Notes: a model not told the origin generated them from the letters alone. A stretch of 32,923 nt of DNA from Calditrichota bacterium (GCA_008501655.1 QQUK01000150.1:1-32923); one strand, 5' to 3'; numbered from the stretch's first letter, positions 728 through 19,306 are shown. Numbers and translations are program-made.

Positions 728-1966
728 TTAACCGGCTATAAGATGATTTGCAAGTCCTTTACGAAGACCTAACATCAAAGTCAGATATTCCCGCAGCTGG
801 CGGTTACAGAGATAGTTTTCTTTAACAAACTCTTTTGCTGTATTTCCGATAGTGTACATCAAGTCAGGATTTGAGAGAAGTCTTCGGATACGAAGTGCAG
901 CACCTTCCGGTGTATCGACTAAAAATCCGGTATGATGATTATGTACCTGAAGACGAATACCTCCGGTATTACCGCCGATAACCGGTTTGTTTTTCCAGAG
1001 TGCTTCGGTTACCGTCAGTCCAAAACCTTCCTGTAAGGATTTTTGAATGACAATCGCTGAGGCACGCTGGAGAGCGTTGATTATTCTATGCGCATCGGGA
1101 GGAAGCATCAGAATATGAATATCCGGATTACCGTTGGCAGCTTCCTTAACTTCTTCGAGAACCGCGGCACCTTCAGGATCATCGGTTGCACCGCCGCCTG
1201 CTAATACAAGTTGTGCATTAAACGCACCATTCAACAGGTTAAATGCTTCAATAACACCGATGGGGTCTTTGAACCGGTCAAATCGCGAAATCTGAGTAAG
1301 TATCGGTCGATTCGGATCGATATTAAAATTCGACAGTGTATCTAAAATCTCCTGTTCGGACAGATCAATATTTTTATCCGACAAAGGATCAATTGACGGA
1401 GCGATAATAAACTGTGGATGATCCAGACGCTGGGCATAATCTGGCATAGAAAAAATTGAGGCATCGTAATCATTTACTTTTGATCGCAGATAATTCCATA
1501 CCTGACGATTCGGATGGGAAGCGTCTATATGACAACGCCAGATCCATTTACCTTTTTTCTCCGGTACTAATTGATGTAAGTACGCTGGTTGGGGGTCATG
1601 GATAACTACAATATCAGCATCAGCAAGTTTTTCACGCAGGCGTTCGGCATTTTCCTCAACTGTATCCTCGTATGCTTTTATCATCTTTTCAGAAAGGATG
1701 ACTTTATTTCCCTGCAAGCCGTTGTGAAAAGTTTTTGTCGTATTAAAATAATCGGCATTACCATTCAGAACTTCCCATGATGCATCCATCCCAAGTTCGT
1801 TCATCAGCGGAATCATCCAGAAAAGGATTTCAGCAACTCCACCGCCTTCTTTAGTCGAATTGACGTGTACGACCGATGCACCTTTGAGATCGCGGGCGAC
1901 CTGACGAAGTTTCGAAGTCGCAACCGTGCCGATTATTGATTCATAATTTTGTAATGTTTTTTCCAT
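728..1966 (-). CDS. treT: TreT-type trehalose synthase (GT4 glycosyltransferase)
   Basis: Blocks HVNSTKEGGGVAEIL, TKTFHNGLQGN, HDPQPA, WRCHIDASHPN, APSIDPLSDKN, TQISRFDRFKD, DDPEG and QRASAIVIQKSLQEGFGLTVTEALWKNKPVIGG match my recollection of archaeal/bacterial TreT proteins along the whole length. Confidence 0.72.
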   Translation of the reverse strand: MEKTLQNYESIIGTVATSKLRQVARDLKGASVVHVNSTKEGGGVAEILFWMIPLMNELGMDASWEVLNGNADYFNTTKTFHNGLQGNKVILSEKMIKAYEDTVEENAERLREKLADADIVVIHDPQPAYLHQLVPEKKGKWIWRCHIDASHPNRQVWNYLRSKVNDYDASIFSMPDYAQRLDHPQFIIAPSIDPLSDKNIDLSEQEILDTLSNFNIDPNRPILTQISRFDRFKDPIGVIEAFNLLNGAFNAQLVLAGGGATDDPEGAAVLEEVKEAANGNPDIHILMLPPDAHRIINALQRASAIVIQKSLQEGFGLTVTEALWKNKPVIGGNTGGIRLQVHNHHTGFLVDTPEGAALRIRRLLSNPDLMYTIGNTAKEFVKENYLCNRQLREYLTLMLGLRKGLANHLIAG

Positions 1967-2636
1967 ATTGATAATTTTTCATAAAATTCGATGTTATAGC
2001 TGTCAGTGTACTGCGGAGTTCCGCAAGGGTCATAAAGTAAAAATCTATCATTCGCAACGATGCAACGAGGTCCTCTACATCTTCACCGGTCTCTAAAAGC
2101 CAGGCGGTAAAATCATCTGCGTGTGAATCAGTTCTCCGGCGGGCTTCAACAAAATGATAATATATTGAACCAAGAGAGAATTCAGACATTTTAGTGCAGA
2201 GATCTCCGGCTGATTCCAGAACTATACCAGTATCAAAAACAACTGTCGCTGCCTGCATGAACTGAAACGCTCTTCCTTTCGGTGCCCAGGGGATATGATC
2301 GATTTCCCCAAGCCGCTCCTGAAGAATATCTATAAGCTGCTGGCGAAGTTCATCAAAAGATTCAGTTTTATACGGATTGATAAGCGAAAGCCGTTCGGCA
2401 AGTTTTTTATCCCGAAGCTCAGCTCCTGCCCATAAAGCAAAATCATTAGTATATTCAGGATAATCAAAAGTCGGTCGTATGACCGTTTCACAAAAATGAT
2501 GAAAGAGTGATTCATCCGGGCAGTTTTTCACCCGTTCTTCAAGTTCTCTCAGATTGAGAGCTTCTCTAACTCCTGCCATTCTTGTTATTAATGTACAATC
2601 TTTAACTGCAAATCCCATATATGTAGAGTCGGACAA
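1941..2636 (-). CDS. Conserved hypothetical protein; first gene of the treT-otsB operon
   Basis: 231-aa ORF with no credible competitor. It overlaps the treT start by 26 nt, which suggests translational coupling. I can assign no catalytic motif. Confidence 0.6.
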   Translation of the reverse strand: MSDSTYMGFAVKDCTLITRMAGVREALNLRELEERVKNCPDESLFHHFCETVIRPTFDYPEYTNDFALWAGAELRDKKLAERLSLINPYKTESFDELRQQLIDILQERLGEIDHIPWAPKGRAFQFMQAATVVFDTGIVLESAGDLCTKMSEFSLGSIYYHFVEARRRTDSHADDFTAWLLETGEDVEDLVASLRMIDFYFMTLAELRSTLTAITSNFMKNYQYGKNITKL

Positions 2637-4351: not shown

Positions 4352-4645
4352 ATGAAAATCTATGTAGGCAATATGTCATTTGACACAACTGAAGATCAGC
4401 TGCGCGAACAGTTCGGCAGTTTTGGTGAAGTAACTTCTGTAAGTATTATTACAGACAAATATGACGGTAGACCAAAAGGTTTTGGTTTTATCGAAATGGC
4501 ACAGAAAAGTGAAGCTATTGAAGCTATTACCGCATTAAACGGTAAAGAAGTCAATGGCCGCACACTTAACGTGAACGAAGCCAAACCACGTACAGACAAT
4601 AACAATCGTCGTGGTGGTGGAAACAACTTCCGTCGTAATTACTAA
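4352..4645 (+). CDS. RRM-type RNA-binding protein with an N/R/G-rich tail
   Basis: RNP2 IYVGNM, RNP1 KGFGFIEM and a C-terminal NNNRRGGGNNFRRNY tail. An AAGGAG RBS lies 6 nt upstream of the ATG. Confidence 0.9.
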   Translation: MKIYVGNMSFDTTEDQLREQFGSFGEVTSVSIITDKYDGRPKGFGFIEMAQKSEAIEAITALNGKEVNGRTLNVNEAKPRTDNNNRRGGGNNFRRNY

Positions 4646-4675: not shown

Positions 4676-4708
4676 AAAACCGGTGCGCTTATGCGAGCCG
4701 GTTTTTTT
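4676..4708. terminator. Bidirectional hairpin terminator between the convergent RBP and kinase genes
   Basis: AAAACCGGTGCGC / GCGAGCCGGTTTT stem with one mismatch and one G-U pair, and a 4-nt loop. It is flanked by an A-run on the left and a T7 run on the right, so it can terminate both strands. Confidence 0.6.
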
Positions 4709-6944
4709 ATTCAGTAAAACCGATCTTTTTCAAAAGAACCGGCCAACGAGGATCGGAGTGAAGATTTTTAAAATAAAAAGCAACCTTTAGCTGTGGAAGT
4801 CCGGCGTCTCTATCACGGTAGGCACGTTCTAACCACTTAAAAGATTTATCCACTTCATTTCTTTCTCCATATATCATAGCTAACTGAAACGCCCATGCAT
4901 CAGCATTCGGCATGTTTAACATAGTCTCAACAGCAGCATCTGATTCCTTTTTGTTTCCCAATCCAAAGTATGATATAGCTAAAGCCTGCAGACGATGCCC
5001 TTCAGATTCTTCAAGCTTTGCATATTTTAAAGACTCTTCATATTTCCCCTGAATATACAATATCCCACTGATCCATGTATATATTCCAGCCATTCCCTGA
5101 CTTAATTTTAATGCTTTGTGAAAAGCTTCAAGAGATTCATCAAACTTATTTACAATAGTATAAAACCTCCCTATGCTCATATATACTTCCGGGTTTAAAG
5201 GATCCAGTTCCTCTGCCTTCGCCAGTAATTTCTCAGCTTCTGCAGACTCCCCAAGCATTCCTTTAAACGCACCGACGCTACTGACTATCCGACAATCATT
5301 CGGAGCTAATTCAAGCGCTTTTTTCATAGCAACATTCGCTTCATCAAAATGATATTCAAGTGATAACCGAATCCAACCGAGAACTTCGTATGCATCTGCT
5401 AACTGATTATCAAACTCCAGTGCTTTCATAACAGCTTTTTTTGCATTTCGATATGTTGTTTCGTGGTCATCAAAACCATAAGCACATTGGACAAAATAAA
5501 CTCGTCCCAAACCTGCCCAGGCTTTTGCATTTTCAGAATCTATTTTAATCGCCTGTTCGTACAACGATATTGCTTCATTCATTGTGGATACAGTCCAGGA
5601 ATAACTTAATTGCTGTGCTTTAAGGGTCAGTTCATAGCTTTCAGGTGAAGTCGGTTCAATAATCTTTGATTTACCAAGTAGTGTCACATGCATCTCTTCA
5701 GCAACAGCTGCAGCGATTTCATCCTGAACGGCAAAAATATCTTCAATTACCCGGTCGTAGGTATCCGACCAGAGATGGAAACCGTCGGTTGTTTTCACAA
5801 GCTGGGCGGTTATGCGTACCCGATTGCCGGATTTGCGAACCGAGCCTTCCAAGATTGTTGACACACCAAGTTTACTTCCGATTCCTCTTAAATCTTCCTG
5901 TTTCCCTTTGAATGCAAACGATGATGTCCGACCGGTGACTTTAAGTTCCGGGATTTTTGCAAGAACATTTAACAACTCTTCTGTAAGACCGTCAGCAAAA
6001 AACTCATTTTCCGGATCGGTTGACATATTTGCAAAAGGAAGTACCGCAATTGATGGGCTTTCATCTGTTATTGTCTTTTTATTTTTTGTCTGCATGGCAA
6101 CAGCACGCAATGCCTTGGAAAGTTCCTGAGCTGATTGAAATCTCTCTGTTTTCTGTTTATGCAGACATTTTTCGACGATCTCCTGCAAGGCATACGGTAT
6201 TTCTGAATTATATGTCTGCACCGAATCCGGTTTTTTATGTAAAACATTCTGAAGAGTAGCGGCATCATTTGAATCTTTGAAAGGTGCTTTCCCGGATATC
6301 AATTCATACATCACCACACCGAAAGAAAAGATGTCAGACCGATGATCAACCTCTTTCCCCTCAGCCTGCTCCGGCGACATATAGGCAAATGTTCCAAGTG
6401 TAGAGCCTGCTTTCGTTAGCTCTTCGGTTCCCTGGATGGTTGCCAGACCAAAATCTAATATTTTTGCTCGGAACTCATCGTTTACTATAATATTAACCGA
6501 TTTTATATCCCGGTGAGTTATTCCGCTCTTGTGTGCTTTTGCAAGTCCGTCCGCAACCTGAATCATCAGATCAACAATTTTATCTAAAGATAGTTTTTCT
6601 TCATAACAATAATGATGGAATGTATTTCCGCTGATATACTGCATAGCAATAAATGGACGTTGCTCATGTTCGGAAACTTCAAAAATTGTAACTATATTGG
6701 GATGTTCAAGTTTCGCTGCTGCCTGCGCCTCGCGGGTGAACCTGAGACGGAGTTCTTCGTTTGCTGCCAGATGGTTCGGCATAAACTTTAAAGCAACCTT
6801 ACGGTTCAGCTTTGTATCATCAGCAAGATATACCTCGCCCATCCCGCCGGCACCGATCTTTTTTTCGATTCGATAGTGAGCAATCATCGTACCTTTGGTC
6901 AATGGTACATGCATCTGTGTGTTATCGTCTTCAAATTCTGACAT
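4707..6944 (-). CDS. Hanks-type Ser/Thr protein kinase fused to a TolB-N-like module and TPR repeats
   Basis: GAGGMGEVY P-loop, VALK, HRDIKSVN catalytic loop, DFGLA and SPEQ. These are followed by SIAVLPFANMS...FADGLTEELL (TolB-N-like/COG5616-type block) and TPR-like repeats to the C-terminus. Confidence 0.9.
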   Translation of the reverse strand: MSEFEDDNTQMHVPLTKGTMIAHYRIEKKIGAGGMGEVYLADDTKLNRKVALKFMPNHLAANEELRLRFTREAQAAAKLEHPNIVTIFEVSEHEQRPFIAMQYISGNTFHHYCYEEKLSLDKIVDLMIQVADGLAKAHKSGITHRDIKSVNIIVNDEFRAKILDFGLATIQGTEELTKAGSTLGTFAYMSPEQAEGKEVDHRSDIFSFGVVMYELISGKAPFKDSNDAATLQNVLHKKPDSVQTYNSEIPYALQEIVEKCLHKQKTERFQSAQELSKALRAVAMQTKNKKTITDESPSIAVLPFANMSTDPENEFFADGLTEELLNVLAKIPELKVTGRTSSFAFKGKQEDLRGIGSKLGVSTILEGSVRKSGNRVRITAQLVKTTDGFHLWSDTYDRVIEDIFAVQDEIAAAVAEEMHVTLLGKSKIIEPTSPESYELTLKAQQLSYSWTVSTMNEAISLYEQAIKIDSENAKAWAGLGRVYFVQCAYGFDDHETTYRNAKKAVMKALEFDNQLADAYEVLGWIRLSLEYHFDEANVAMKKALELAPNDCRIVSSVGAFKGMLGESAEAEKLLAKAEELDPLNPEVYMSIGRFYTIVNKFDESLEAFHKALKLSQGMAGIYTWISGILYIQGKYEESLKYAKLEESEGHRLQALAISYFGLGNKKESDAAVETMLNMPNADAWAFQLAMIYGERNEVDKSFKWLERAYRDRDAGLPQLKVAFYFKNLHSDPRWPVLLKKIGFTE

Positions 6945-7060: not shown

Positions 7061-7960
7061 TTACTTTTTTCTTGTGAAAATTGTCATAAAGATTCCACCA
7101 AGAATCAGGATAGATGCAATTATCAGACGGTTTGTTACCTGCTCACCTAAAAAGACTATACCTCCGACAGCAGCCAGAACCGGTACGGCGAGTTGCGAGA
7201 TTGATGCCTGGGTTGTGGTGATATTTTTAAGGGAAATGTACCAGAGAACATAACCGATACCTGAGGCAAGGGCACCCGATATTCCAGCAAGCAAGATACC
7301 GGAAAGATTAAAAGACTCTGAGTCTAAATCTACTGGATTTATAAAAATAACTATAAGGAGTATTATCACCATTGGCAGCGTGTACAGAAAGTTACGGGAT
7401 GTTGCCAAAATTGATTCGGTTACTTTCTGTCCTAAGAGAGAATAGACTGCCCAGCAGATTCCGGAACCGGCCATCAATAATGTTCCCTGTAATGGTGGAG
7501 CTGAAATTCCCGGTAACAAGAGATAAATCAAACCGACAAATGAGATTAAAAATCCTGTTAGTTCTATAAAGCTGACTCTGTTTCCCTGAAACATTGAAAC
7601 CGCCATCATTGTAATCTGTACTGTCGGAAATAATACAAGTGCTCCAATGGCTGCATCAAGCTGAACATATGCATAAGAAAAGAAAATTGCATATCCAAAC
7701 AGCATCAACGGCTGCCAGAAATTCTCAATTTTGATTGAAAGAAGTCTATGATCCTGCTGTTTTGTCCCGATGATTGTTCCATGAAGACGCTTTTGAAAAA
7801 GAATCAACGGAAGCAGCATAAGCATCCCTGAAGCTAATCGGATCGATGTAAAAAGTCCGGGGCTGATGGCATCAGTTGCCAGAGCAAGTCTGCAAAATAT
7901 TGAATTCGATGCAAAAAAGATCATTGTTAAAATTAGTGTGAGAAATGATGAGAGACGCAT
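7061..7960 (-). CDS. DMT-superfamily (EamA-type) transporter
   Basis: 299 aa with about ten hydrophobic helices arranged as two EamA-like halves. Confidence 0.8.
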   Translation of the reverse strand: MRLSSFLTLILTMIFFASNSIFCRLALATDAISPGLFTSIRLASGMLMLLPLILFQKRLHGTIIGTKQQDHRLLSIKIENFWQPLMLFGYAIFFSYAYVQLDAAIGALVLFPTVQITMMAVSMFQGNRVSFIELTGFLISFVGLIYLLLPGISAPPLQGTLLMAGSGICWAVYSLLGQKVTESILATSRNFLYTLPMVIILLIVIFINPVDLDSESFNLSGILLAGISGALASGIGYVLWYISLKNITTTQASISQLAVPVLAAVGGIVFLGEQVTNRLIIASILILGGIFMTIFTRKK

Positions 7961-8010
7961 AAACTATAATACGCATTCAATGGAAAACTAACCAACAAAA
8001 AATACTATAC

Positions 8011-9120
8011 CTATCCTGATTTTTCACTCACTAACAGCATACAGCGGTAGACTTCCTGACCATACCGGGTCATTTTCAGGAAATCATTTTTTTTTATTTT
8101 TATATTTTTTGCTTTAGCTTTCGATCTATAAGATTCAATATCTGTATCATGAATAAACAGATGTTCCAAATCAAACCCTGTGACAATAACCCAATGAGGA
8201 ACTTTGCTTCCGGTCAGCCGGTAAGTACTTATCATCACGATAGGGATTTTGTTCTGATATAAAGCTGAGATTATCTCTTCAATCCCGAACTCGTAAAACG
8301 CACAGCCTAATCCTTTTTCTTTTGCTTTTTGCTTCATATCATTATGAACAATCCGCATAACTTCTTTTTTCTCCGGACGCCTGACCGACTTTAACAGAGG
8401 TGTTGCATCCATAGACATTACCATAAAAACATCAAGATCCCGTTTTAATGCTGAAAGTGCAAGACCATACCCATCGGTCCCGCCGAAACCGGATGTCATA
8501 AAAATCAACGTCGATTCTTTCCATAATGCAAGCTCAAGAGCCCGGTTAAATTCTATCTCTTTTTCGAAATATTTAAGAGCCATCATCAGACAGGCAGGAC
8601 CGCAAGTGAATTCAAGACTTTGAGGAAAGTAAGGGATTGGAAGCATTACCTTCAGGGGTAGATTATTTACAAGATCTTTCGACATCTTGATACCATATTC
8701 ACCTTTTCCGTAATAATCTTTCAGTCGACGCACAGAAGTATAGCCATGGTTTTTATAAAATTCCACAGCATGATGATTCCCTTCCCGAACTTCAAGAACA
8801 ATTTTGTCACATCCCCGTCTGATTGCCTCACGTTCACACTCTTTTAATAAAATGTTCCCGAAACCTTTTCCCTGAAATACCGGGTCTACACCGATATTAT
8901 ATAAACGTGCATTTTTATTCGATTTCCGCCAGACAAGAGATGCCGATGCTGCAGCTTCCGATTTATATTCCAAAAGCAGATTTGTTGCACGGGAGTCCGT
9001 CAAAAGATATGAAATCTGATCTTCACTGAATTGATCTTTGGTAAATGCGGCCTGTTCAATTTTTAACAAAGCAGCAAGATCATGTTCCGTAGCAAGACGT
9101 ATTGTAGTTTTACTTTTCAT
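8011..9120 (-). CDS. GNAT N-acetyltransferase fused to a C39-like papain-fold cysteine peptidase domain
   Basis: The N-terminal half has GNAT motif A (VDPVFQGKGFGNILL) and a RimI-like layout. The C-terminal half has CGPACLMM (nucleophile Cys), PHWVIVTG (His) and IHDTD (Asp). It overlaps the ATP-grasp gene stop by 11 nt. Confidence 0.75.
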   Translation of the reverse strand: MKSKTTIRLATEHDLAALLKIEQAAFTKDQFSEDQISYLLTDSRATNLLLEYKSEAAASASLVWRKSNKNARLYNIGVDPVFQGKGFGNILLKECEREAIRRGCDKIVLEVREGNHHAVEFYKNHGYTSVRRLKDYYGKGEYGIKMSKDLVNNLPLKVMLPIPYFPQSLEFTCGPACLMMALKYFEKEIEFNRALELALWKESTLIFMTSGFGGTDGYGLALSALKRDLDVFMVMSMDATPLLKSVRRPEKKEVMRIVHNDMKQKAKEKGLGCAFYEFGIEEIISALYQNKIPIVMISTYRLTGSKVPHWVIVTGFDLEHLFIHDTDIESYRSKAKAKNIKIKKNDFLKMTRYGQEVYRCMLLVSEKSG

Positions 9121-10009
9121 TATTTATATCGAGCAGGTAGCGGATTAAGCGTTCATACAGATCCGAGTTAACCTGATCCTCTTCTCCGGCATTAATAGTC
9201 GGATTATCATTTACTTCGATTACAATAAATCCGTTATCGGTCTGTTTTAAGTCAACACCGTACAAGCCGGTGCCAATAGAACCGGTAGCTTTGAGTGCAC
9301 ATTCCAATAACCCTTCTGGTGCTTTATCAATCGGTATTCCTTTCACAGGACCATCAACAGTCCGTCCATCTGACAAATGAGTCAGTATCTTCCAGTGTTT
9401 TTTTGGTATCGTATATTGACAGACATATAACACTTCATCATTTAAGATACCGACACGCCAGTCAAAGGCGGATTTCACAAATCTCTGAGCAACGATTCTA
9501 TCCGCTCTTCGGACAAACCGTTTAGCAACTTTAACAAACTCATCAACTGTCGAGGCTTTTTCGACATACCGTGAAAAACTACTGTTTGGTGCTTTCAGAA
9601 TAATCGGTTTACCGAGAATAGCAAACAGCTCCTTTGCTTTTTCAACCGTAATCTCTTCACGGCCAATAACCCGCGTATCAGGAATCGGGACATCATGAGT
9701 TATCAGATGCTCGTACATGTTCACTTTGTCACAGCAGATCCTGATTGAATCAGGGTCATCAATTACTTTGACATTATGCATTTCAGCCGTTCTTGCGGCA
9801 ACATATGCGGAGTTCAACGGATCGGTTAGAGCCCGAATATAAAGTGCATCATATTCCGGAATTTTGTACATATCAGCCCGAAACAAAAAATCAACCCGGT
9901 GACCAAGCTTTCGGGCTACCTGACTCAAACGCATAAGTGCGTTCATCTCTTCCGATGATGAAATCGTATACCGTTCGACATAAATCCCTAACTGTCCCAT
10001 ACGACACAT
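9110..10009 (-). CDS. RimK-family ATP-grasp amidoligase
   Basis: DALYIRALTD, VIDDPDSIRICCDKV, ILKAPNSSFSRYV, IVAQRFV and GVDLKQTDNGFIVIEVNDNP (E-x-N Mg/ATP site) follow the RimK/alpha-L-glutamate ligase pattern. Confidence 0.8.
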   Translation of the reverse strand: MCRMGQLGIYVERYTISSSEEMNALMRLSQVARKLGHRVDFLFRADMYKIPEYDALYIRALTDPLNSAYVAARTAEMHNVKVIDDPDSIRICCDKVNMYEHLITHDVPIPDTRVIGREEITVEKAKELFAILGKPIILKAPNSSFSRYVEKASTVDEFVKVAKRFVRRADRIVAQRFVKSAFDWRVGILNDEVLYVCQYTIPKKHWKILTHLSDGRTVDGPVKGIPIDKAPEGLLECALKATGSIGTGLYGVDLKQTDNGFIVIEVNDNPTINAGEEDQVNSDLYERLIRYLLDINNEK

Positions 10010-10647
10010 CCTTTCAAATGCTTGAGTTCGGTCTTGGTCAGATCTTTAATAAAAAGCGGAGCAATATCACTAAGCAGATATTTTTCATCAGCTGTGATAA
10101 TGACCCTGACTCTGGCAAGCGGGATTGAAAAAACCTCCCAGACATTCCTGGAAAATTCCTGAAACTGTATTTGTGATGACCAGCCCAGTACCGAATTGAA
10201 ATATTTAATTTTACAACCTTCGGTTAACTCCTGGCAACAGACAGCATAGGTATAGTTTCTCGTTAAAGACTTAGCGATACTTTTTACCCGACCGCTTTTA
10301 TAGACGATCTTCCCTTTTAACGTAAACGGATTAATCGGGTCAACAATCACAGGTGGTTCGAAATAACCATTACTCAGATAATACTCAGCAACCGGAAGAC
10401 CGGCGATTTTTGCTTTTTCCAGAAACAGAGGTGGGACGTAAGCATCAAGCATATCTTTACAAGTCGGTTTTATCGGCTGACCGCGATGTTCATAGTCCTG
10501 GGAGAGGTAATATCCCTCGCTCAAATAATCATAATCTCCGGAGAGATTTATTAACTGATTACCTGTTTCTGATTTCTTTATCAGAGCAGATTGAAGCCTT
10601 GATTCTACGCTGCTCTGGTTTGGTTTTGAAGTGACCATTTTTCTCAA
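9988..10647 (-). CDS. RimK-like ATP-grasp N-terminal (RLAN) domain protein
   Basis: YDYLSEGYYLSQDYEHRGQPIKPTCKDMLD and FSIPLARVRVI...LSDIAPLFIKDLTKTE resemble the RLAN domain, which is normally fused N-terminally to RimK-like ATP-grasps. It overlaps the ATP-grasp ORF by 22 nt. Confidence 0.6.
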   Translation of the reverse strand: MRKMVTSKPNQSSVESRLQSALIKKSETGNQLINLSGDYDYLSEGYYLSQDYEHRGQPIKPTCKDMLDAYVPPLFLEKAKIAGLPVAEYYLSNGYFEPPVIVDPINPFTLKGKIVYKSGRVKSIAKSLTRNYTYAVCCQELTEGCKIKYFNSVLGWSSQIQFQEFSRNVWEVFSIPLARVRVIITADEKYLLSDIAPLFIKDLTKTELKHLKGCVVWDS

Positions 10648-10853
10648 ATTTAAAAGTTAGTATCCTACCCGGTATTCCAAACCCGGAAAACTGCAAATCG
10701 AAATATACCTGACAACAAGATATGTGCAAAGGGAATTATTCTACTTTTGAAGAATTCTTAGAAATAAACCGAGTAAAACTCCCGGTACTTTCTACCGATA
10801 ATATGATAAGATAAGAATAGATAATGTGAACTATAATATTATTGAGGTCTGCA

Positions 10854-11282
10854 ATGTCGGAACACTTATATTGGAATGAAATCTACAAAACCGGCGTGGA
10901 GAAAATAGATCGTCAACACCGAAAACTCTTTGATCTGTTCGAACGACTCAGGCAATCACTTAAATTTGGGTTGAATAATCCAATTGTCGGAGCAACGATA
11001 AAAGACCTGGTAGAATATACTCAAGAACATTTTGCGGATGAAGAGGAAATTCAAAAACAGATTAATTTTGAAGAATACAAGCGACACCAAAAACTGCATC
11101 GAGACTTGTTGAATGAAATGGCACAGATACTGCTCAAACTCAAGAATAATGAACAGTTTAATGCAATGGATTTGCTTAACTTTTTAAAGCATTGGATCCA
11201 GGATCACATCCTAAAAGAAGATCTTAAAATCGGTGAAGCATACAAAAAGACTGTAGATTCTGCAGCATCTATAAATAACTAA
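10854..11282 (+). CDS. Hemerythrin-like di-iron protein (bacteriohemerythrin)
   Basis: W.E.YKTGVEKIDRQHRKLF, HFADEE, HQKLH and HWIQDHILKED give the His/Glu/Asp di-iron ligand pattern. I prefer the ATG at 10854 over the TTG at 10842 used by the ORF track. Confidence 0.85.
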   Translation: MSEHLYWNEIYKTGVEKIDRQHRKLFDLFERLRQSLKFGLNNPIVGATIKDLVEYTQEHFADEEEIQKQINFEEYKRHQKLHRDLLNEMAQILLKLKNNEQFNAMDLLNFLKHWIQDHILKEDLKIGEAYKKTVDSAASINN

Positions 11283-11349: not shown

Positions 11350-11856
11350 TCACCTTTTACCGCCGCTACCTTGATTCCTTCCCTGCCCACGGCCACGGTT
11401 AATTCCTATACCTTGTCCCCGTCCAATTCCCCGACCCTGTCCGGTTCTGAAACCTTGATCTTGTACCGAGACATCTTTTTCATTATGATCCTGATGTTGT
11501 CCATGACCACGACATGCTTTTGACGGATCGATGTCAAGAGTTTTACCGTTTTGCAAATCAGCAATCGCCTGTTGGACAGACTCAGATTCAGAGATTTTTG
11601 TTTCAATTCCTTCGGCGTTAAGAGCTTCAACCGCCCTTCTTCCCATTCCATTACAGAGAACTGTATCAATTTTGTATATACATAATTGATTCATCGGATG
11701 ACACGTCCCGTGAGAATGATGGGAGTTTCTATTTTCAATCACCTGCACCTCTTCGGTATCAGTATTATATAATGTAAAAAACGGTGATGAACCAAAATGT
11801 CCAAACAATCTGGAATTAAGCCCTTCACCACTACTTGTTGGAATACATACTAACAT
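11350..11856 (-). CDS. NifB/NifX-like (Nitro_FeMo-Co domain) protein with a C-terminal G/R/Q-rich tail
   Basis: HFGSSPFFTLY and CNGMGRRAVEALNAEGIE blocks of the NifX-like fold, with His-rich loops (NSHHSHGTCHP, GHGQHQDHN). The last ~35 aa read GQGRGIGRGQGIGINRGRGQGRNQGSGGKR. The ATG at 11856 starts 1 nt after the DUF134 stop; a GTG at 11868 is an alternative. Confidence 0.72.
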   Translation of the reverse strand: MLVCIPTSSGEGLNSRLFGHFGSSPFFTLYNTDTEEVQVIENRNSHHSHGTCHPMNQLCIYKIDTVLCNGMGRRAVEALNAEGIETKISESESVQQAIADLQNGKTLDIDPSKACRGHGQHQDHNEKDVSVQDQGFRTGQGRGIGRGQGIGINRGRGQGRNQGSGGKR

Positions 11857-11857
11857 A

Positions 11858-12148
11858 TTATTTCTCACTTTCTTCTAACTTTATGAGGATTGCCGAATTT
11901 GTAAGCATTGCATCTATAAGCTGACTGCGTCCGGCTTGTAAAAGTCTTTGAATAGTTCCCCTGGAAATGCCCATAATATCACCTGCTTCCGTTTGATCAT
12001 ACCCCTGATGGTCGACTAAGCGCATCGCCTCAAACTGATCAAGCGGAATTTCAACCTCACCAATCGTTCTCATCGGTATACCCTGCGGTTTATAAACCCT
12101 GTTTTCGCGGTATCGCCGGCAATATCTTTTTTTGTGCGGTCGGGGCAT
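11858..12148 (-). CDS. DUF134/UPF0251-family HTH DNA-binding protein
   Basis: MPRPHKKR...YKPQGIP...LDQFEAMRLVDHQGYDQTEAGDIMGISRGTIQRLLQAGR is the DUF134 pattern with a sigma-70 region-4-like HTH. This family is a frequent operon partner of NifX-like proteins. An AAGGA RBS is present. Confidence 0.8.
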   Translation of the reverse strand: MPRPHKKRYCRRYRENRVYKPQGIPMRTIGEVEIPLDQFEAMRLVDHQGYDQTEAGDIMGISRGTIQRLLQAGRSQLIDAMLTNSAILIKLEESEK

Positions 12149-12413: not shown

Positions 12414-12806
12414 ATGATAAAATTTAGAATTTATACATTATTGGTTGTGGCATTGCTTTTAGTGGCAAGCCCATGGTTAACAACGCCGGAGGTTAACGCT
12501 TCTGAAGTTATGGAATCCTGCAGTTGTTGTGATGGTCCATGTCAAGGATGTTGTGCACAACCGATCGAAAAGACAAAAGAAACTACCCGCGACTGCAATT
12601 GCAAACTTTCCGATATACCTGTTATCCCCAATCAGCCAGTTGAAGTTGTCGATACTCGTTCAGACTTTCAGTTAAATAAAGATATAGCAACTGATAAAGA
12701 GTTGGTATACTATCAACCCCAGGTTTATCATTATGCAGCTCCTTCAGGAGTTTCGCCACCGGATGATTTTTCACCTCCACTCTATGTCATCAACGCTTCT
12801 TTTTAA
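12414..12806 (+). CDS. Secreted Cys-cluster protein; putative periplasmic thiophilic-metal binder
   Basis: Signal peptide MIKFRIYTLLVVALLLVASPWLTTPEVNA, then CSCCDGPCQGCC...CNC (8 Cys within ~30 residues). It is the first ORF of the cus-like operon. Confidence 0.6.
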   Translation: MIKFRIYTLLVVALLLVASPWLTTPEVNASEVMESCSCCDGPCQGCCAQPIEKTKETTRDCNCKLSDIPVIPNQPVEVVDTRSDFQLNKDIATDKELVYYQPQVYHYAAPSGVSPPDDFSPPLYVINASF

Positions 12807-12886
12807 TTTAATATCTCTCTTTGATACTATCTAAAGTATCACCGTCCAATTAATCTAATTATCATTTGAAATGGAGAATAATTGCT

Positions 12887-14146
12887 ATGAAAATTTCATG
12901 GCTGGTTCTTCCTGTTACGCTCCTATTTTTGATAACATTTCAAAATAGCAATGCACAACAGGTGGTTCTGGATTCACTGATAGATATTGCTTTAAAAAAC
13001 AATCCGGAGATAAAAGCTTCCGAGAGCATGAGTAAGTCGTTTGCATATAAATCTCACGCCTCCGGTTCTCTCCCCGACCCGAGCATCAATGTAGGTTTAC
13101 TGAATCTTCCGGTAAATTCCTTCGCATTTGATGAAACCCCGATGTCCGGAATAAATATAGGCATATCTCAAAAAATACCCTGGCTGGGTAAATTGAGTAA
13201 CGAAAGAAAACTTGCAGACATAAATACGCAGATTTCTGAAACTCAAACAAATATATTAAAAAATCAGATAATAAAGAATGTTACTGATGCCTATGCTGAA
13301 TATTCATTCTTTGCTTTATCTATACCTATTATTGAGGATTTTCTGGATTTATTAGAAGCAACCAGAAATACTTCGGAAATCAAATACGCCAACGGTGATG
13401 CTCCTGCTCAGGATATGCTTCGGATTAGTTCGCTGTATTCCCGAGTGAAAGTTAAATTGCTGAACATAAAACAAAATAAGTACAAGTCTCTGGTAAAGCT
13501 GAGACAATTAGCAAATGACTTTTTACTCCCTGAAAACCTTACTCCGACACTTGCTGAGCCATATGAAGATACAGAATCTCTAATCACTATCGATAAAAGT
13601 CCGTATCTGTACAAATCTTCATTAGGTGTTGAGTTTTCGAAGTATAACAAAAAAATATCACACAACAACTATTACCCTGATTTTGTATTGGGAGTTGATT
13701 ATCGGCTACGGGAACATGTCACCGGTGACCCGGTAAAAGGAGCTGACTTTCTTTCTTTTAAAGTCGGATTTACACTCCCTCTCTGGTTTAACAAAAAACA
13801 GGATAATAAACTCAGAGCAGCCAATCAGATGATAATCAGTTCAAAGGAACAGGAAAACTCTGTACGAAACTTATTGCTTGCCCGCTCAACTGAACTTGAA
13901 TCACAACTTGATACTGAAATGAAAAGTATCCGGGAATATGACAACTCAATTATTCCGGAAGCAAATGCTGCTGCTGAATCAGCCGAAATTGCCTATGAAG
14001 TTGGGCAAGTTGATTTTAATGCGTTGTTAGCAGCCCAAAAAGAACTATTTGAAATCAAAATTGAACGCCTGAACTTACTAAAACAATATCACCAATCAAA
14101 AGCTGCTTTGACAGAAGTAGCTGGAACATCATATGAAAGAGAATAA
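12887..14146 (+). CDS. TolC-family outer-membrane efflux channel (CusC/CzcC-like)
   Basis: Signal peptide ending SNA-QQ, with OEP-type repeat structure and operon context next to the MFP and RND genes. I prefer the ATG at 12887, which has GGAG 10 nt upstream, over the TTG at 12866. Confidence 0.82.
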   Translation: MKISWLVLPVTLLFLITFQNSNAQQVVLDSLIDIALKNNPEIKASESMSKSFAYKSHASGSLPDPSINVGLLNLPVNSFAFDETPMSGINIGISQKIPWLGKLSNERKLADINTQISETQTNILKNQIIKNVTDAYAEYSFFALSIPIIEDFLDLLEATRNTSEIKYANGDAPAQDMLRISSLYSRVKVKLLNIKQNKYKSLVKLRQLANDFLLPENLTPTLAEPYEDTESLITIDKSPYLYKSSLGVEFSKYNKKISHNNYYPDFVLGVDYRLREHVTGDPVKGADFLSFKVGFTLPLWFNKKQDNKLRAANQMIISSKEQENSVRNLLLARSTELESQLDTEMKSIREYDNSIIPEANAAAESAEIAYEVGQVDFNALLAAQKELFEIKIERLNLLKQYHQSKAALTEVAGTSYERE

Positions 14147-16004
14147 GATGAAAACAATAATGATAGCAGTACTATGTCTCGGACTAGGTTTTACTGCAGC
14201 CTACTTTGTTTTGCCAACTTCGAATGCTGCTGAATTCACATCTGAACAATCTGAAGTTCAACTCTACACCTGCGGTATGCATCCTGATATAATCAGTGAT
14301 AAACCGGGGATCTGCCCTATTTGTAATATGAAGCTGACTCCAAAAAGAGACAGTGGTTCAGAAACCGGAACGGTAAAAATAAATCCGGCAACAAAACAGA
14401 ATATGGGTCTGGTGACTACAGCTGTTGCAAAATATAATCTACAAAAATCTGTAAGTGCATTTGGAAAAGTTGTCGTACCCGATCCAAATCATTATAAAGT
14501 TACAATCAAAACAAAAGGATGGGTGGAAAAACTGTTTGTCTCGGAAGTCGGTGAACAGGTCTTTAAAAATCAGCCTCTTTTTGAAATCTATTCTCCGGAG
14601 ATTGTCACCGCCCAAAAAGAACTACTTGTTGCACTGGCAAAACCGGAAAATCAATCGATGCAGAGATTAGCTGAAACAGTTCGTCAAAGATTAAAAAACT
14701 GGGATATATCCGATGAGCAGATAGCAGAAATTGAACGAACCGGTGAAATCTCGCGCACAATGATTATTCGCTCTCCGGCAAATGGCTTTGTACAAAATAA
14801 AAATATAAATGACGGTAATAGAGTTGACCCGAATTCTGTTCTGTTTGACATCGTTGATATCTCTTCAGTATGGGTAGAAGCTCAGGTTTACGAACAGGAT
14901 ATCCCGCATATTACCCTAAAACAATCGGGACAGATTGTAATTCCAGGTTTACCGGGGAAACAGATTGAAGGGAAAATTTCCTATATCTCCCCGATTATAG
15001 ATAAAAACGGACAGCTTGAAATAAGACTCACGATTCAAAACGGAGATTTCTTACTAAAGCCGGAAATGTATGCTGAAGTTACTCTTGGTCAATCTGATGT
15101 AAATTCGGTTCTTGCAATTCCACGAAAAGCAGTTATCAACTCAGGTAAACGGCAACTTGTCTATATAGCTGACAGTGAAAATTCATACAAAGCTCGTGAA
15201 ATTAATACAGGTGTTGTTGGAATGAACGACATGGTGGCAGTTAAAAGCGGGCTTGCTAAAGGTGACAATGTAGTTACTTCAGGACAATTTTTAATTGATA
15301 GTGAGTCACGCCTGAGTGAATCTATCAGCAGTTCAGAGATGCATAACCATTCTGCAAGTACAAAAACTTCTGATGACCACAAATCACATTCACAAATGGC
15401 AAACAGTGAAGCGACTGAAAACAAAGCTAAGATGTCAATCGATACCGAAAAGACAGACCCTTATGATATCCATACCTGCCCGATGGAATCACACAGTCAT
15501 ATTCTGAACTATGGACCGGGTGAATGTGCTGACTGCGGAATGAATTTAGTGCCAATTACTGAAACGAAACATGCACCTGTTTTCGTCTGTCCGATGCCGA
15601 GTTGCGGTACCGTTTCGCAGGAATCGGGTGTTTGTCCAAAATGTAATATGAAACTCATCGAATATAAACCTGAAAGCTACACATCACATGAACATTCAAA
15701 AGATAGTAATACTTCTGCGAAGCAACCAGGAAAATCAGCTACCAAGGACTCTACAGCTGCTGTCAATACAGATCCGTATAATATCCATACCTGTCCGATG
15801 GCGTCCCATAGTCATATCCTGAACTATGGTCCCGGCAAATGTGCCGACTGCGGGATGAATCTAGTACCGATTTCCGAAACAGAACATGCACCAGTTTTCG
15901 TCTGTCCCATGCCGAGTTGCGGTACCGTTTCACAGGAACCGGGTGTATGTCCAAAATGTAACATGAAATTGATTGAGTACAAACCGGGAGCTTCGAATGA
16001 TTGA
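14133..16004 (+). CDS. RND efflux periplasmic adaptor (CusB/CzcB-like) with five heavy-metal-binding CxxC modules
   Basis: The core carries the MFP barrel-sandwich/beta-barrel blocks (VTTAVA..., FEIYSPEIVTAQKELL, VWVEAQVYEQDI, VVTSGQFLIDSES). The N-terminal module is YTCGMHPDIISDKPGICPICNMKLTP (14265-14342), and four more modules sit in the C-terminal extension. An alternative start is the ATG at 14148. Confidence 0.85.
   Translation: MKENKMKTIMIAVLCLGLGFTAAYFVLPTSNAAEFTSEQSEVQLYTCGMHPDIISDKPGICPICNMKLTPKRDSGSETGTVKINPATKQNMGLVTTAVAKYNLQKSVSAFGKVVVPDPNHYKVTIKTKGWVEKLFVSEVGEQVFKNQPLFEIYSPEIVTAQKELLVALAKPENQSMQRLAETVRQRLKNWDISDEQIAEIERTGEISRTMIIRSPANGFVQNKNINDGNRVDPNSVLFDIVDISSVWVEAQVYEQDIPHITLKQSGQIVIPGLPGKQIEGKISYISPIIDKNGQLEIRLTIQNGDFLLKPEMYAEVTLGQSDVNSVLAIPRKAVINSGKRQLVYIADSENSYKAREINTGVVGMNDMVAVKSGLAKGDNVVTSGQFLIDSESRLSESISSSEMHNHSASTKTSDDHKSHSQMANSEATENKAKMSIDTEKTDPYDIHTCPMESHSHILNYGPGECADCGMNLVPITETKHAPVFVCPMPSCGTVSQESGVCPKCNMKLIEYKPESYTSHEHSKDSNTSAKQPGKSATKDSTAAVNTDPYNIHTCPMASHSHILNYGPGKCADCGMNLVPISETEHAPVFVCPMPSCGTVSQEPGVCPKCNMKLIEYKPGASND
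15456..15986 (+). repeat. In-frame tandem duplication (2 x 216 nt, 315-nt period) inside the adaptor gene
   Basis: Unit 1 is 15456-15671 and unit 2 is 15771-15986. Each encodes DPY(D/N)IHTCPM.SHSHILNYGPG.CADCGMNLVPI.ET.HAPVFVCPMPSCGTVSQE.GVCPKCNMKLIEYKP. Confidence 0.9.
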
Positions 16005-18561
16005 TCGAATAATCGAACTTTCGATTAAAAACCGATGGCTGGTTCTCTGGATGACCATAGCAATTCTTGCCCTCGGATTTTGGGCGATTGATAATATTGC
16101 TATTGATGCCATACCGGATTTATCGGATGTTCAGGTAATTATACAAACCGATTATAACGGGCAACCTCCGCAAGTTGTTGAAGATCAGGTTACTTTTCCA
16201 ATCTCTACAGCAATGCTGTCAGTTCCCGGAGCAAAAAATGTTCGCGGCTTCTCATATTTCGGAACATCATTTGTATATATAATTTTTGAAGACGGCACCG
16301 ATATTTACTGGGCACGAAGCCGTGTACTCGAATACCTTTCGCAACTGACCGATAATTTACCGGCTACCGCCAAACCAAAACTTGGTCCTGATGCAACCGG
16401 TGTCGGCTGGGTTTACCAATATATTTTAACTGATACAACCAATCAACTGGATTTAGCTGAATTGCGTTCCTTGCAGGACTGGTTTTTAAAATATGAACTT
16501 TCAGCTCTTGCAGGAGTATCTGAAGTCGCTTCGGTTGGAGGGTTTGTCCGTCAATATCAGGTTGAAGTCGATCCCCGCAAACTGCAGCACTATAACATTC
16601 CATTAAAACATGTCCTGATGGCTGTAAAAAAATCCACTTCTGCAACCGGTGCAAAGCTGATTGAAATCGGTGAAACCGAGTTTATGGTGCGAAGTCAGGC
16701 ATATATCGGTGATTTAGATGATCTCAGGAATCTTCCGATACACAAATCGAAAGATGCCCCGCCAGTTTTACTTTCCTCGGTTGCTGATGTTCACTTAGGT
16801 CCCGACATTCGCCGCGGTATTGCTGAAAATAACGGCGAAGGTGAAACCGTTGGTGGCATCATTGTGATGCGTTATGGCGAAAATGCACGAGAAGTTATCA
16901 AAAAAGTTAAAGAACGAATTGATGAACTTCAGAACAATTTACCCGAAGGGGTTCAGATTCATCCGGTCTACGATCGTACTGATTTGATAAATCGTGCAAC
17001 AGAAAATCTTACGGTAACCTTAATTAAAGAGATGATTTTTGTTGTTCTGATTATCCTGCTGTTTCTTCTCCATGTACGGTCTACTTTGGTTGCGATGATA
17101 GTAATACCAGCCGGGGTCGCATTATCAATCTTGATTATGTATTTGTTAGGTATCAATGCAAACATCATGTCTTTAGGAGGAATCGCCATCGCTATCGGTG
17201 TAATGGTCGATGCTTCGCTTGTCACCGTGGAAAATGCACATAAACATCTGGAGCGATTAAAAGAAGGTGAATCAAGAAATACAGCAATCCTTGAAGCAAC
17301 CAAAGAAGTTGGTCCGGCTCTCTTTTTCTCATTACTGATAATTACCGTTTCATTCCTTCCGGTTCTGGCGCTTGAAGGACAAGCTGGTAGGCTGTTCAAA
17401 CCGCTTGCCTATACAAAAACATTTGCAATGGCAGCTTCAGCACTCCTTTCGATTACCATTGTACCGGCTCTGGTCGTTTTGGTATTAAAAGGTAAAATCA
17501 GGTCAGAGAAAAAGCATCCGGTCTCAAATTTTTTAATTTTACTCTATCGTCCACTCATTAATATTGCCTTAAAATTCAGATGGCTGGTAGTAATCGCGGC
17601 ATTTATCTTATTAGTTATATCAATCATCCCGATATCAAAAATCGGTTCTGAATTTATGCCCCCACTCTATGAAGGTGATCTGCTATATATGCCGACGACC
17701 CTCCCCGGTATGTCGGTTGAAAAGGCTCGGGAACTTCTGCAACAAACTGATCGGATTATTAAAACATTTCCCGAAGTCGAAAATGTATTCGGGAAAGCCG
17801 GTCGCGCTGAAACAGCAACTGATCCAGCTCCATTGACGATGCTTGAAACGACGATAATGCTCAAACCGAAAGAGGAATGGCGTCCGGGACTGACACCGGA
17901 TATGCTCATTGATTCACTTGATGCTGCTGTACAGTTCCCCGGTTTGACAAATTCCTGGACGATGCCAATTCGTACCCGTATTGACATGCTTGCTACCGGA
18001 ATCAAGACTCCAGTTGGAATTAAAATTCTTGGACCGAATCTTGATAGTTTGAATAACATCGCCCAAAGAATCGAAACAGAAGTCAAAACAATGTCCAATA
18101 TTCGCTCTGTTTATGGTGAACGGATTACCGGCGGTAATTATCTTGATATTGATATCGACCGTTTCAAGGCTGCCGCTTATGGGTTGACTCCCGGCGATAT
18201 CAATGAAGCTCTCATGGCTGCCGTTGGCGGAATGAAAGTCATCGACAACATAGAAGGTCGGGAACGGATATCTGTGTTGGTTCGCTATCCAAGAGAACTG
18301 CGAGATAATCCTGAAGAGATTGCCCGTATCATCATTCCCGCACCGGATGGACGCAATGTTCCCTTAGGACAGATTGCTTCTATCGGATTCACAAAAGGTG
18401 CCGCGATGATTAAATCAGAAAATGCCCGCCCGACAGCCTGGGTTTTTATTGATTTGAAAGATATCGATGTTGGAACTTTTGTAGAAAATGCTCAGGAGCA
18501 GGTCGTCAATAATATCAGTTTACCACAGGGATATTCATTAGTTTGGTCGGGGACAGTATGA
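15997..18561 (+). CDS. cusA: CusA/CzcA-family heavy-metal RND pump, N-terminal fragment (frameshifted; fragment 1 of 2)
   Basis: MIDRIIELSIKNRWLVL... is the canonical CusA/CzcA N-terminus. The ATG at 15997 overlaps the adaptor stop (ATGATTGA). The frame ends ...LPQGYSLVWSGTV* at 18561. Confidence 0.85.
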   Translation: MIDRIIELSIKNRWLVLWMTIAILALGFWAIDNIAIDAIPDLSDVQVIIQTDYNGQPPQVVEDQVTFPISTAMLSVPGAKNVRGFSYFGTSFVYIIFEDGTDIYWARSRVLEYLSQLTDNLPATAKPKLGPDATGVGWVYQYILTDTTNQLDLAELRSLQDWFLKYELSALAGVSEVASVGGFVRQYQVEVDPRKLQHYNIPLKHVLMAVKKSTSATGAKLIEIGETEFMVRSQAYIGDLDDLRNLPIHKSKDAPPVLLSSVADVHLGPDIRRGIAENNGEGETVGGIIVMRYGENAREVIKKVKERIDELQNNLPEGVQIHPVYDRTDLINRATENLTVTLIKEMIFVVLIILLFLLHVRSTLVAMIVIPAGVALSILIMYLLGINANIMSLGGIAIAIGVMVDASLVTVENAHKHLERLKEGESRNTAILEATKEVGPALFFSLLIITVSFLPVLALEGQAGRLFKPLAYTKTFAMAASALLSITIVPALVVLVLKGKIRSEKKHPVSNFLILLYRPLINIALKFRWLVVIAAFILLVISIIPISKIGSEFMPPLYEGDLLYMPTTLPGMSVEKARELLQQTDRIIKTFPEVENVFGKAGRAETATDPAPLTMLETTIMLKPKEEWRPGLTPDMLIDSLDAAVQFPGLTNSWTMPIRTRIDMLATGIKTPVGIKILGPNLDSLNNIAQRIETEVKTMSNIRSVYGERITGGNYLDIDIDRFKAAAYGLTPGDINEALMAAVGGMKVIDNIEGRERISVLVRYPRELRDNPEEIARIIIPAPDGRNVPLGQIASIGFTKGAAMIKSENARPTAWVFIDLKDIDVGTFVENAQEQVVNNISLPQGYSLVWSGTV

Positions 18562-18565
18562 AAAT

Positions 18566-19153: not shown

Positions 19154-19306
19154 AAAAACCGATACTGTATTAGTATGACTAACGGTCCTATATATTTATC
19201 AATTAAACATTCAATTTTTCTTAATTTCTCAGTTATAAATTCAAATTGATTTCTTAAGTAGTATGCAGTATATATGTCTATGATATTAAAGAGATTAGGT
19301 TAATTG

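Follow-up and report, generated by a model that had tools for sequence, protein, structure and literature searches.

A conserved module of an RLAN protein, a RimK-like ligase and an acetyltransferase-peptidase fusion, with a tentative role in making N-acetylated acidic peptides

The contig QQUK01000150.1 of a Calditrichota bacterium (GCA_008501655.1), 32,923 nucleotides long and referred to below in its entirety as the window, carries at positions 7061-10647 a cluster of four minus-strand genes. They code for an RLAN protein, a RimK-family ATP-grasp amidoligase, a GNAT acetyltransferase fused to a C39-like (DUF3335) papain-fold peptidase domain, and an EamA transporter. The first three (hereafter the trio) are a true functional module that recurs, in three gene layouts, under at least eight phylum-level labels, and the window holds a split-RLAN variant of it with a lineage-specific exporter. 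Our preference, held tentatively and at somewhat less than even confidence, is that the trio is a self-contained amidoligase module that makes a short N-acetylated acidic peptide and has its turnover, by a thiol peptidase, built in. The finding is real and merits experiment; it is no categorical surprise.

A three-gene unit conserved across phyla

Relatives of the fusion protein were sought by a pattern-seeded scan of one genome per GTDB species, and it was found in at least 251 of 185,579 species, a lower bound since the scan demanded exact motifs. The closest relatives are annotated as Candidatus Zixiibacteriota. Gene neighborhoods were analyzed for the 80 best loci, with ca. 8 kb of flank around each; two were cut off by contig ends. 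A RimK-like gene adjoins the fusion gene in 77 of the 78 evaluable loci, and the one exception (L069) has only a RimK-like remnant of 129 amino acids. RLAN adjoins the RimK-like gene, or is fused to it, throughout the related loci, in line with the association expected of its family, PF14401.

The arrangement of the genes varies between lineages. In the layout found in the window, RLAN, RimK and the fusion gene follow each other on one strand and overlap, and this order is shared by genomes labelled Zixibacteria, Ignavibacteriales, Eisenbacteria, Chloroflexota, Acidobacteriota, Gemmatimonadetes and Nitrospinota. A convergent layout, with the fusion gene facing RimK and RLAN on the other strand, is present in 10 Trueperaceae/Deinococcaceae-type loci. 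The third, in which the fusion gene precedes a gene for a single RLAN-RimK protein of ca. 490 amino acids, belongs to Zeta- and Gammaproteobacteria, including Mariprofundus ferrooxydans PV-1 and Marichromatium gracile. There are also rare single-chain relatives, one of them GNAT-RLAN-RimK (P0347, 651 amino acids) and the other RLAN-RimK-GCS2 (P0351, 975 amino acids), whose GCS2 domain is of the YbdK type, a family of small-molecule carboxylate-amine ligases. The linkage has been kept while the order was rearranged and this, together with such Rosetta-stone fusions, is strong evidence that the trio has a shared function. The co-conservation that an earlier note on this DNA, made from the sequence alone, had presumed, and without which its proposal would have fallen, is thus well supported. 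The two single chains suggest, in addition, peptide assembly by two ligases (P0351) and a direct coupling of acetylation to ligation (P0347).

Clustering of all the neighbors in the 80 loci revealed no universally conserved fourth gene, and no conserved gene for a substrate protein was found beside the trio in most loci, the window included. Since no substrate gene accompanies most of the loci, the trio must act on something that every cell has.

The ligase and its RLAN partner

The ligase matches PF08443 and has the ATP- and Mg-binding residues of a RimK-type ATP-grasp enzyme (K139, Q175, D183/R185, D253, E265 and N267). These and K95 are invariant among 56 homologues, and because of this invariance we consider it, as far as the alignment goes, an active enzyme of a distinct subfamily. 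It scores below every NCBIfam cut-off, i.e., 80.1 versus 143.4 bits for rimK_fam (TIGR00768), 67 versus 275.6 for LysX (LysX_arch, TIGR02144), 53 versus 350 for MptN and 25.1 versus 331 for the S6-Glu ligase (NF007764). The values for rimK_fam and NF007764 rule out an orthologue of the S6-modifying RimK, the other finding that would have undone the proposal of the earlier note. The best sequence match in PDB is ArgX in complex with LysW (3vpb, E value of 2e-10), followed by a RimK-domain protein, RimK and LysX. Aligned to ArgX, the WRAN..GG substrate motif of the latter is replaced by WKIL plus an insertion, which suggests that the two enzymes differ in substrate. The nearest relatives appear to be enzymes that act on protein C termini (ArgX, LysX and RimK), and a protein or carrier would be an equally plausible substrate.

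The standalone RLAN has an insert of ca. 70 residues with respect to the fused form of proteobacteria, due to which the PF14401 match comes in two stretches. Both forms share the motif NLxxxYxYxxxGY[YF]xS. The long form is rare, with 129 representative clusters among 1.84 billion proteins. An AlphaFold2 model of the RLAN protein (predicted local distance difference test, pLDDT, 86.6) was compared with PDB using Foldseek, and all of the 50 matches listed were ATP-grasp enzymes (PsnB, LysX/ArgX, Ddl and a RimK-domain protein), with E values of 1e-8 to 4e-7 and TM-scores on the query of 0.48 to 0.60. The alignment of the RLAN and RimK-like profiles with hhalign gave a probability of 1.8%, i.e., no homology at the sequence level, and weak Pfam scans of 30 RLAN proteins found no ATP-grasp family. 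The ATP-grasp-like fold is, then, a prediction from AlphaFold and Foldseek. At the positions of the Lys that binds ATP and of the Asp/Glu/Asn that bind Mg in ATP-grasp enzymes, we read IVDPINP, RVRV and LLSDIAP in RLAN. This reading of the sequence, made by eye and not from a structural alignment, points to a loss of the catalytic residues, and RLAN is predicted to be a degenerate ATP-grasp paralogue that serves as a non-catalytic partner of the ligase.

The acetyltransferase-peptidase fusion

The N-terminal domain of the fusion belongs to the GNAT superfamily, with the acetyl-coenzyme A motif [R/Q]xxGx[G/A] in the form QGKGFG. Among 79 sequences, G86 is found in 75 and position 88 is Gly or Ala in all; E110, N115 and Y137 are identical in the 79, and at position 122, 67 have Tyr and the other 12 Phe. 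The domain narrowly misses the cut-off of the RimI equivalog TIGR01575 (81.5 versus 86.4 bits). Both in sequence and in fold, it is best matched in PDB by the N-terminal acetyltransferases RimI, Ard1 and Naa, and the nearest folds are those of the RimI structures 5isv and 2cnm (30 to 32% identity, TM-score on the target of 0.85 to 0.89). PaiA and SpeG appear at a lower rank. It would seem, therefore, a RimI-like N-alpha-acetyltransferase, predicted to be nearer to the acetyltransferases of protein N termini than to amino acid acetylases.

The second domain is predicted to be a cysteine peptidase. It matches PF11814 and has the Gln/Cys/His/Asp set of clan CA. The oxyanion residue Q167, C173 and H309 are identical in 79/79 homologues, and at D325 73 have Asp and 6 have Glu. 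When the entire fusion model was searched by fold, GNAT matches dominated, and the peptidase was compared by sequence profile instead; its Q/C/H/D positions align with those of solved double-glycine C39 domains (6mpz and ComA). The intact Cys/His/Asp triad described in the earlier note therefore holds, with Glu as an occasional variant of the Asp. Some 110 residues are inserted between the Cys and His motifs, and the C39 family proper, PF03412, matches only the 36 residues 163-198. Neither an ABC transporter nor a conserved short precursor open reading frame (ORF) was found beside the trio, as would be expected of a C39 bacteriocin exporter. AlphaFold modelled the whole fusion confidently (pLDDT 90.4; predicted TM-score, pTM, 0.89), from which a fixed arrangement of the two domains is predicted.

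Judged by the domains, we hold firmly that the trio should comprise an amide-forming enzyme of the RimK/LysX type, its obligatory non-catalytic partner, an acetyltransferase of the N-alpha type and a thiol peptidase, all working on one family of substrates.

Genes next to the trio

The EamA protein has the two repeats of the EamA/DMT family and scores below all the specific exporter equivalogs (30 versus 354 bits for RhtA, for example). It probably is cotranscribed with the trio in the window. The earlier note had counted it as part of the system, a view that did not survive the comparison, since the gene adjoins the trio only in the near-identical contigs of the window's own lineage (L001 and L002) and lies beside it in none of the 80 related loci, with weak matches only in L021. 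Other neighbors of the efflux type are MFS transporters (L031 and L034) and MscS channels (L015, L025, L026, L028, L029 and L070). Such EamA, MFS and MscS neighbors recur in independent lineages, which would fit a small solute that is exported or released.

A cassette of genes coding for TetR, AdoMet_dc(-like), Acetyltransf_6, ATP-grasp_4 and a LysA-like pyridoxal phosphate-dependent decarboxylase, with or without an MFS transporter, lies co-directional and directly upstream of RLAN in 13 Zixibacteria/Ignavibacteria-type loci. It overlaps or nearly abuts RLAN in three of the loci examined (L031, L034 and L038), i.e., is translationally coupled to it. The decarboxylases are LysA-like and below all cut-offs; two Mariprofundaceae loci (L063 and L064) have a related one ahead of the fusion gene. 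The cassette was seen in L005, L006, L010, L011, L013, L014, L015, L022, L031, L034, L038, L080 and L085 to L088. It is without the trio in L085 and L088, and most of the loci that carry it also have a zinc-ribbon protein. Probably it is an uncharacterized carrier-protein or small-molecule pathway in its own right. Other genes found beside the trio are one of the agmatinase/arginase family in L016 and MetK in L079 and L081. In four Mariprofundaceae loci (L063, L064, L066 and L074) a DUF2817 gene is convergent with and directly downstream of RLAN-RimK; its product, which we take to be M14 carboxypeptidase-like, could be a second trimming enzyme, of metallo type, for acidic tails.

The zinc-ribbon protein has 60 to 81 amino acids, with the pattern CPRCxS...CxDCDxEFEVGG and then an acidic tail, in many cases with DW[DE] at its end. 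Its gene is directly upstream of RLAN in at least eight loci and near RLAN in four more. L036 has instead, beside the trio, a genuine LysW homologue (5787-6002 of that locus, minus strand; E value of 8e-6 to 3wwl and 5k2m, and to the LysW of T. thermophilus). It ends in FEDELFDD, not in EDWGE, and has a cytochrome oxidase operon on one side and the RLAN-RimK-fusion operon on the other, outside any lysine operon. The similarity of the zinc-ribbon profile to LysW is weak (E value of 0.005, among generic zinc ribbons) and the C-terminal residue varies within the family, where LysW has an invariant Glu. In at least 23 of the 55 clusters that make up the family, the longest contig is as long as one carrying an RLAN or fusion match. 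An ORF search of the window found no zinc-ribbon/LysW carrier and no precursor peptide. A role of the zinc-ribbon protein as dedicated substrate of the trio is weakened by its presence with the cassette where there is no trio (L085 and L088).

Comparison with known systems

Neighborhoods of RLAN, RimK-like, GNAT and papain-like peptidase genes were reportedly predicted by Iyer, Abhiman, Burroughs and Aravind by comparative genomics (Mol Biosyst, 2009), and the association is presumably what Pfam (PF14401, RLAN; PF11814, DUF3335) and the NCBI names reflect. The families and their association are the same here, with the difference that RLAN is a separate and longer protein (owing to its insert) and not the N-terminal domain of the ligase. 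The GNAT-DUF3335 fusion was noted in a 2023 survey (PMC10318531). Our literature search on RLAN, DUF3335 and RimK with C39/papain-like and GNAT found no functional or experimental study. New here are an ATP-grasp-like fold predicted for RLAN, the quantified co-conservation with its three layouts, and the associations with MscS, transporters and LysW-like proteins.

The trio resembles several characterized systems in part. As in RimK/RimB of E. coli and Pseudomonas, which act in S6 polyglutamylation, the trio pairs a RimK-family ATP-grasp enzyme with a peptidase of its own. Free poly-alpha-Glu is a product of RimK that the partner protease, RimB, cuts and whose synthesis it stimulates; RimB takes off Glu residues, and RimB-RimK hybrid proteins exist (PMC11957791). 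However, the peptidase of the trio is a C39-like cysteine enzyme where RimB is a retropepsin, the ligase stays below the cut-offs for the S6 ligase and rimK_fam, and RLAN and GNAT are added. With LysX/ArgX-LysW the trio shares a ligase whose best solved match is ArgX, and LysW-like zinc-ribbon genes in some loci; the differences are that release would be by a cysteine peptidase, not by the M20 enzyme LysK, and that the score on LysX is far below the cut-off. No LysZ, LysY, LysJ or LysK domains were found among the annotated ORFs of the window, and the ligase is not placed in LysX or ArgX.

N-acetylation plus an ATP-grasp peptide bond, giving an N-acetyl dipeptide, is what makes Ngg/AsnO and the mammalian NAT8L with RIMKLA/B comparable, the more so with a GNAT-RLAN-RimK relative such as P0347. 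Ngg is bifunctional: it carries out the N-acetylation of Gln and also makes the peptide bond in N-acetylglutaminylglutamine amide (NAGGN) (PMC8070244). In contrast, the GNAT of the trio is RimI-like, and a cysteine peptidase and RLAN are added. Membership of the Ngg family was rejected, no Ngg-type model being among the NCBIfam matches of P0347 or the window proteins, and no AsnO/asparagine-synthase-like gene appeared among the annotated ORFs of the window. Hence, the precedent of NAGGN and N-acetyl-aspartyl-glutamate (NAAG) invoked in the earlier note is reasonable as a functional analogy, helped by a relative that joins both activities in a single chain, but not as family membership.

Two further comparisons concern the peptidase. 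The C39 domains of bacteriocin ABC exporters (PCAT1, ComA and LahT) have Q/C/H/D motifs that align with it, yet the trio lacks an ABC transporter and a leader-peptide gene, and the peptidase differs by its long Cys-His insert and its short PF03412 match. The glutathionylspermidine synthetase/amidase Gss combines an ATP-dependent amide ligase with an opposing papain-fold cysteine amidase. Gss has a CHAP domain, another ligase family and other substrates, and the likeness may be taken as an analogy.

What the trio may make

In the explanation that we tentatively prefer, the RimK-like ligase, together with RLAN, would link a carboxylate to an amino acid through the alpha-amino group of the latter, at the expense of ATP. 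Going by the precedent of the family, Glu or Asp would be the most likely amino acid, and RLAN would probably position the substrate or hold the growing chain. The RimI-like GNAT would acetylate the free alpha-amino end, and the C39-like peptidase would hydrolyze the same type of bond, limiting the chain length or recycling the product as RimB does for RimK. The net product would be a free N-acetylated di- or oligopeptide of acidic residues, a solute similar to NAAG or NAGGN, and in the genome of the window it would leave via the adjacent EamA carrier. We favor a free acidic peptide because the trio stands alone in most genomes, because its variable neighbors are solute channels, carriers and small-molecule enzymes, and because in one lineage it is fused to the small-molecule ligase GCS2. 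The conservation of the residues predicted to be catalytic in ligase, GNAT and peptidase also speaks for it. Some 5 kb from the trio there is, besides, a TreT-type trehalose synthase (GT1/GT4) with a DUF5752 protein. We counted this neighbor, a gene for a compatible solute close to a putative solute system, on the same side, but the proximity may be coincidental. Several points weigh against a free peptide. The closest characterized relatives of every domain seem to act on proteins (RimI/Ard1/Naa, ArgX/LysX/RimK and the leader-peptide C39 domains), there are no matches to Ngg models among the NCBIfam matches of the trio, and the transporter neighbors vary and are absent from most loci. The LysW-like, acidic-tailed zinc-ribbon genes beside the trio in ca. 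13 loci point to a protein acceptor at least there.

The relatives just mentioned are the main argument for a modification of protein tails, which is the main rival, and a serious one, though we regard it as rather unlikely. Here, the ligase, guided by RLAN, would add Glu to the acidic C terminus of a housekeeping protein such as S6, the RimI-like domain would acetylate an N terminus, e.g., that of S18, and the C39-like peptidase would remove the tail (like RimB) or process the target. RimK targets S6 and RimI targets S18, and the two ribosomal proteins form a heterodimer. The nearest solved or curated relatives of all three catalytic domains modify proteins, the GNAT comes close to the RimI equivalog, and a housekeeping target would account for the lack of a linked substrate gene in most loci. 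The antagonism of RimK and RimB on RpsF is established (PMC11957791). However, the very low score on the S6-Glu ligase model, the predicted difference in the substrate region and a distribution as rare and patchy as that of the fusion protein do not fit, efflux and small-molecule neighbors would be unexpected for a ribosome modifier, and a target protein was not found. More doubtful still is a carrier system in which the ligase would attach the alpha-amine of an amino acid to the acidic tail of a zinc-ribbon protein similar to LysW, other enzymes would modify the cargo, the peptidase would free it and the fused GNAT would acetylate the freed alpha-amine at once. This would account for the rigid fusion of a peptidase to an N-alpha-acetyltransferase, and it agrees with the ArgX-LysW complex as best match of the ligase, with the LysW homologue of L036, and with the rare acidic-tailed zinc-ribbon gene so often upstream of RLAN. 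On the other hand, the carrier gene has no counterpart near the trio in the window and most loci, which leaves the lone trio of the window unexplained; by itself the trio would run a futile cycle of loading and unloading. The zinc-ribbon protein may serve the decarboxylase/ATP-grasp_4 cassette, with which it occurs in the two loci without the trio, and its variable C-terminal residue and faint profile similarity set it apart from LysW. A bolder generalization, no less doubtful than the carrier, would see in the trio a biosynthetic logic not described before. The RimK/LysX-type ligase and its dead paralogue RLAN would build a peptide bond on an acidic carboxylate, in some lineages the tail of a new LysW-like zinc-ribbon carrier, and the fused enzyme would cut the product free by its cysteine peptidase and at once cap the freed alpha-amine with acetyl. 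If true, Zixibacteria, Zetaproteobacteria, Trueperaceae and others would have N-acetylated solutes or metabolites of a new class.

The decarboxylase neighbors raise the option of a polyamine-amide metabolism, with the ligase joining a carboxylate to a polyamine, the papain-like domain as the opposing amidase, after the manner of Gss, and the GNAT acetylating the polyamine. AdoMet_dc and decarboxylases of the ornithine/arginine/diaminopimelate type in the 13 Zixibacteria/Ignavibacteria-type loci, the further decarboxylases in L063 and L064, the agmatinase/arginase-family gene, MetK, and the lower-ranking resemblance to PaiA and SpeG would agree with it. We find it very unlikely, however, as these neighbors are in a minority of loci and none is in the window, the decarboxylases fall below all cut-offs, the GNAT is nearer to RimI than to SpeG, and the amine donors of RimK-family enzymes are amino acids. 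The least credible proposal, to which we give hardly any weight, is the maturation of ribosomally synthesized and post-translationally modified peptides (bacteriocins included), or anti-phage defense. C39 domains classically cleave double-glycine leaders, after which ATP-grasp and GNAT enzymes could tailor the core; graspetides are indeed products of such ATP-grasp tailoring, and RLAN has PsnB among its fold matches. But no conserved precursor-peptide ORF or ABC transporter lies beside the trio, and the ligase is RimK/LysX-like and not of the graspetide type. A defense system was rejected, the sole PADLOC match being to the GNAT region (14 bits, E value of 0.0035).

Gene coordinates and other genes of the window

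ORF calling and Pfam profile searches upheld the four minus-strand genes and their domain identities as given in the earlier note, with every Pfam match of the four above its curated cut-off (Table 1). The overlaps of 22 and 11 nucleotides and the gap of 50 nucleotides before EamA that it reported hold for the longest ORFs. In identical public contigs, the starts of RLAN and RimK are called at ATG 10638 (216 amino acids) and ATG 10000 (296 amino acids), and the overlap of the two is then 13 nucleotides. A GAAAGGA motif precedes the ATG at 10000 by nine nucleotides, and these two are the probable starts. The GC content is ca. 39% across the cluster region.

Table 1. Features of the cluster and of the rest of the window (window positions; longest ORFs for the four cluster genes)
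Feature	Position	Strand	Size or evidence
RLAN protein (standalone long form)	9988-10647	-	219 aa; PF14401, 54.2 bits (cut-off 25)
RimK-family ATP-grasp amidoligase	9110-10009	-	299 aa; PF08443, 47.2 bits (cut-off 21)
GNAT-C39-like fusion gene	8011-9120	-	369 aa; two Pfam domains
GNAT domain, fusion residues 1-150	8671-9120	-	Acetyltransf_1 (residues 18-127), 62 bits (cut-off 20.7)
Predicted C39-like (DUF3335) papain-fold cysteine peptidase domain, residues 162-364	8029-8637	-	PF11814, 219 bits (cut-off 25)
Predicted peptidase catalytic codon, Q167		-	
Predicted peptidase catalytic codon, C173	8602-8604	-	
Predicted peptidase catalytic codon, H309	8194-8196	-	
Predicted peptidase catalytic codon, D325	8146-8148	-	
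EamA/DMT transporter	7061-7960	-	299 aa; PF00892, 88.6 bits (cut-off 28.2), two repeats
TreT-type trehalose synthase (GT1/GT4) and DUF5752 protein	728-2636	-	
RRM_1 RNA-binding protein	4352-4645	+	
Ser/Thr kinase with TPR repeats	4707-6944	-	745 aa
Hemerythrin	10842-11282		
DUF134 and Nitro_FeMo-Co-domain genes, overlapping	11350-12148	-	
Cys-rich ORF	12414-12806	+	130 aa; no Pfam match
OEP/CusB-like (HMBD) efflux operon	12866-19108	+	
AcrB/CusA-type RND pump, split in two ORFs	15973-19108	+	862 aa and 180 aa
TLC (ATP/ADP translocase-like)/MFS protein	19304-20653	+	
TLC/MFS protein fused to HEAT repeats	26734-29526	+	

Directly downstream of the EamA gene are those of a bacterial RRM_1 protein and of the Ser/Thr kinase, the latter kept only in the window's own lineage (L001). 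On the other side, the hemerythrin gene is divergent from that of RLAN. The product of the Nitro_FeMo-Co-domain gene, which DUF134 overlaps, ends in a Gly/Arg-rich repeat, GQGRGIGRGQGIGINRGRGQGRNQGSGGKR. The RND pump of the metal-efflux operon is broken at ca. 18561-18566 into two ORFs that match the ACR_tran profile at positions 1-853 and 861-1021, which may mean that the gene is a pseudogene, that it is recoded there or that the assembly is wrong. Directly upstream of this operon, the 130-amino-acid ORF has a signal-like N terminus and the Cys-rich motif CSCCDGPCQGCC, and its product may be metal-binding. Omp85, PAP2 and histidine-kinase genes lie between and after the two TLC genes. Transporters of the TLC type are unusual outside obligate intracellular bacteria.

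Significance

ATP-grasp amidoligases paired with peptidases are found behind the control of ribosomes (RimK/RimB), osmolytes (NAGGN), neurotransmitter-like peptides (NAAG) and lysine (LysX/LysW). The combination of domains in the trio (a pseudo-ligase, a ligase and an acetyltransferase-cysteine peptidase fusion, as predicted) is without characterized precedent and spans several phyla. With only three genes, direct reconstitution is possible, and identification of the product would tell what RLAN and DUF3335, two families so far without a function, do. A new compatible solute, or a new modification of protein or carrier tails, might come to light in poorly known bacteria of sediments.

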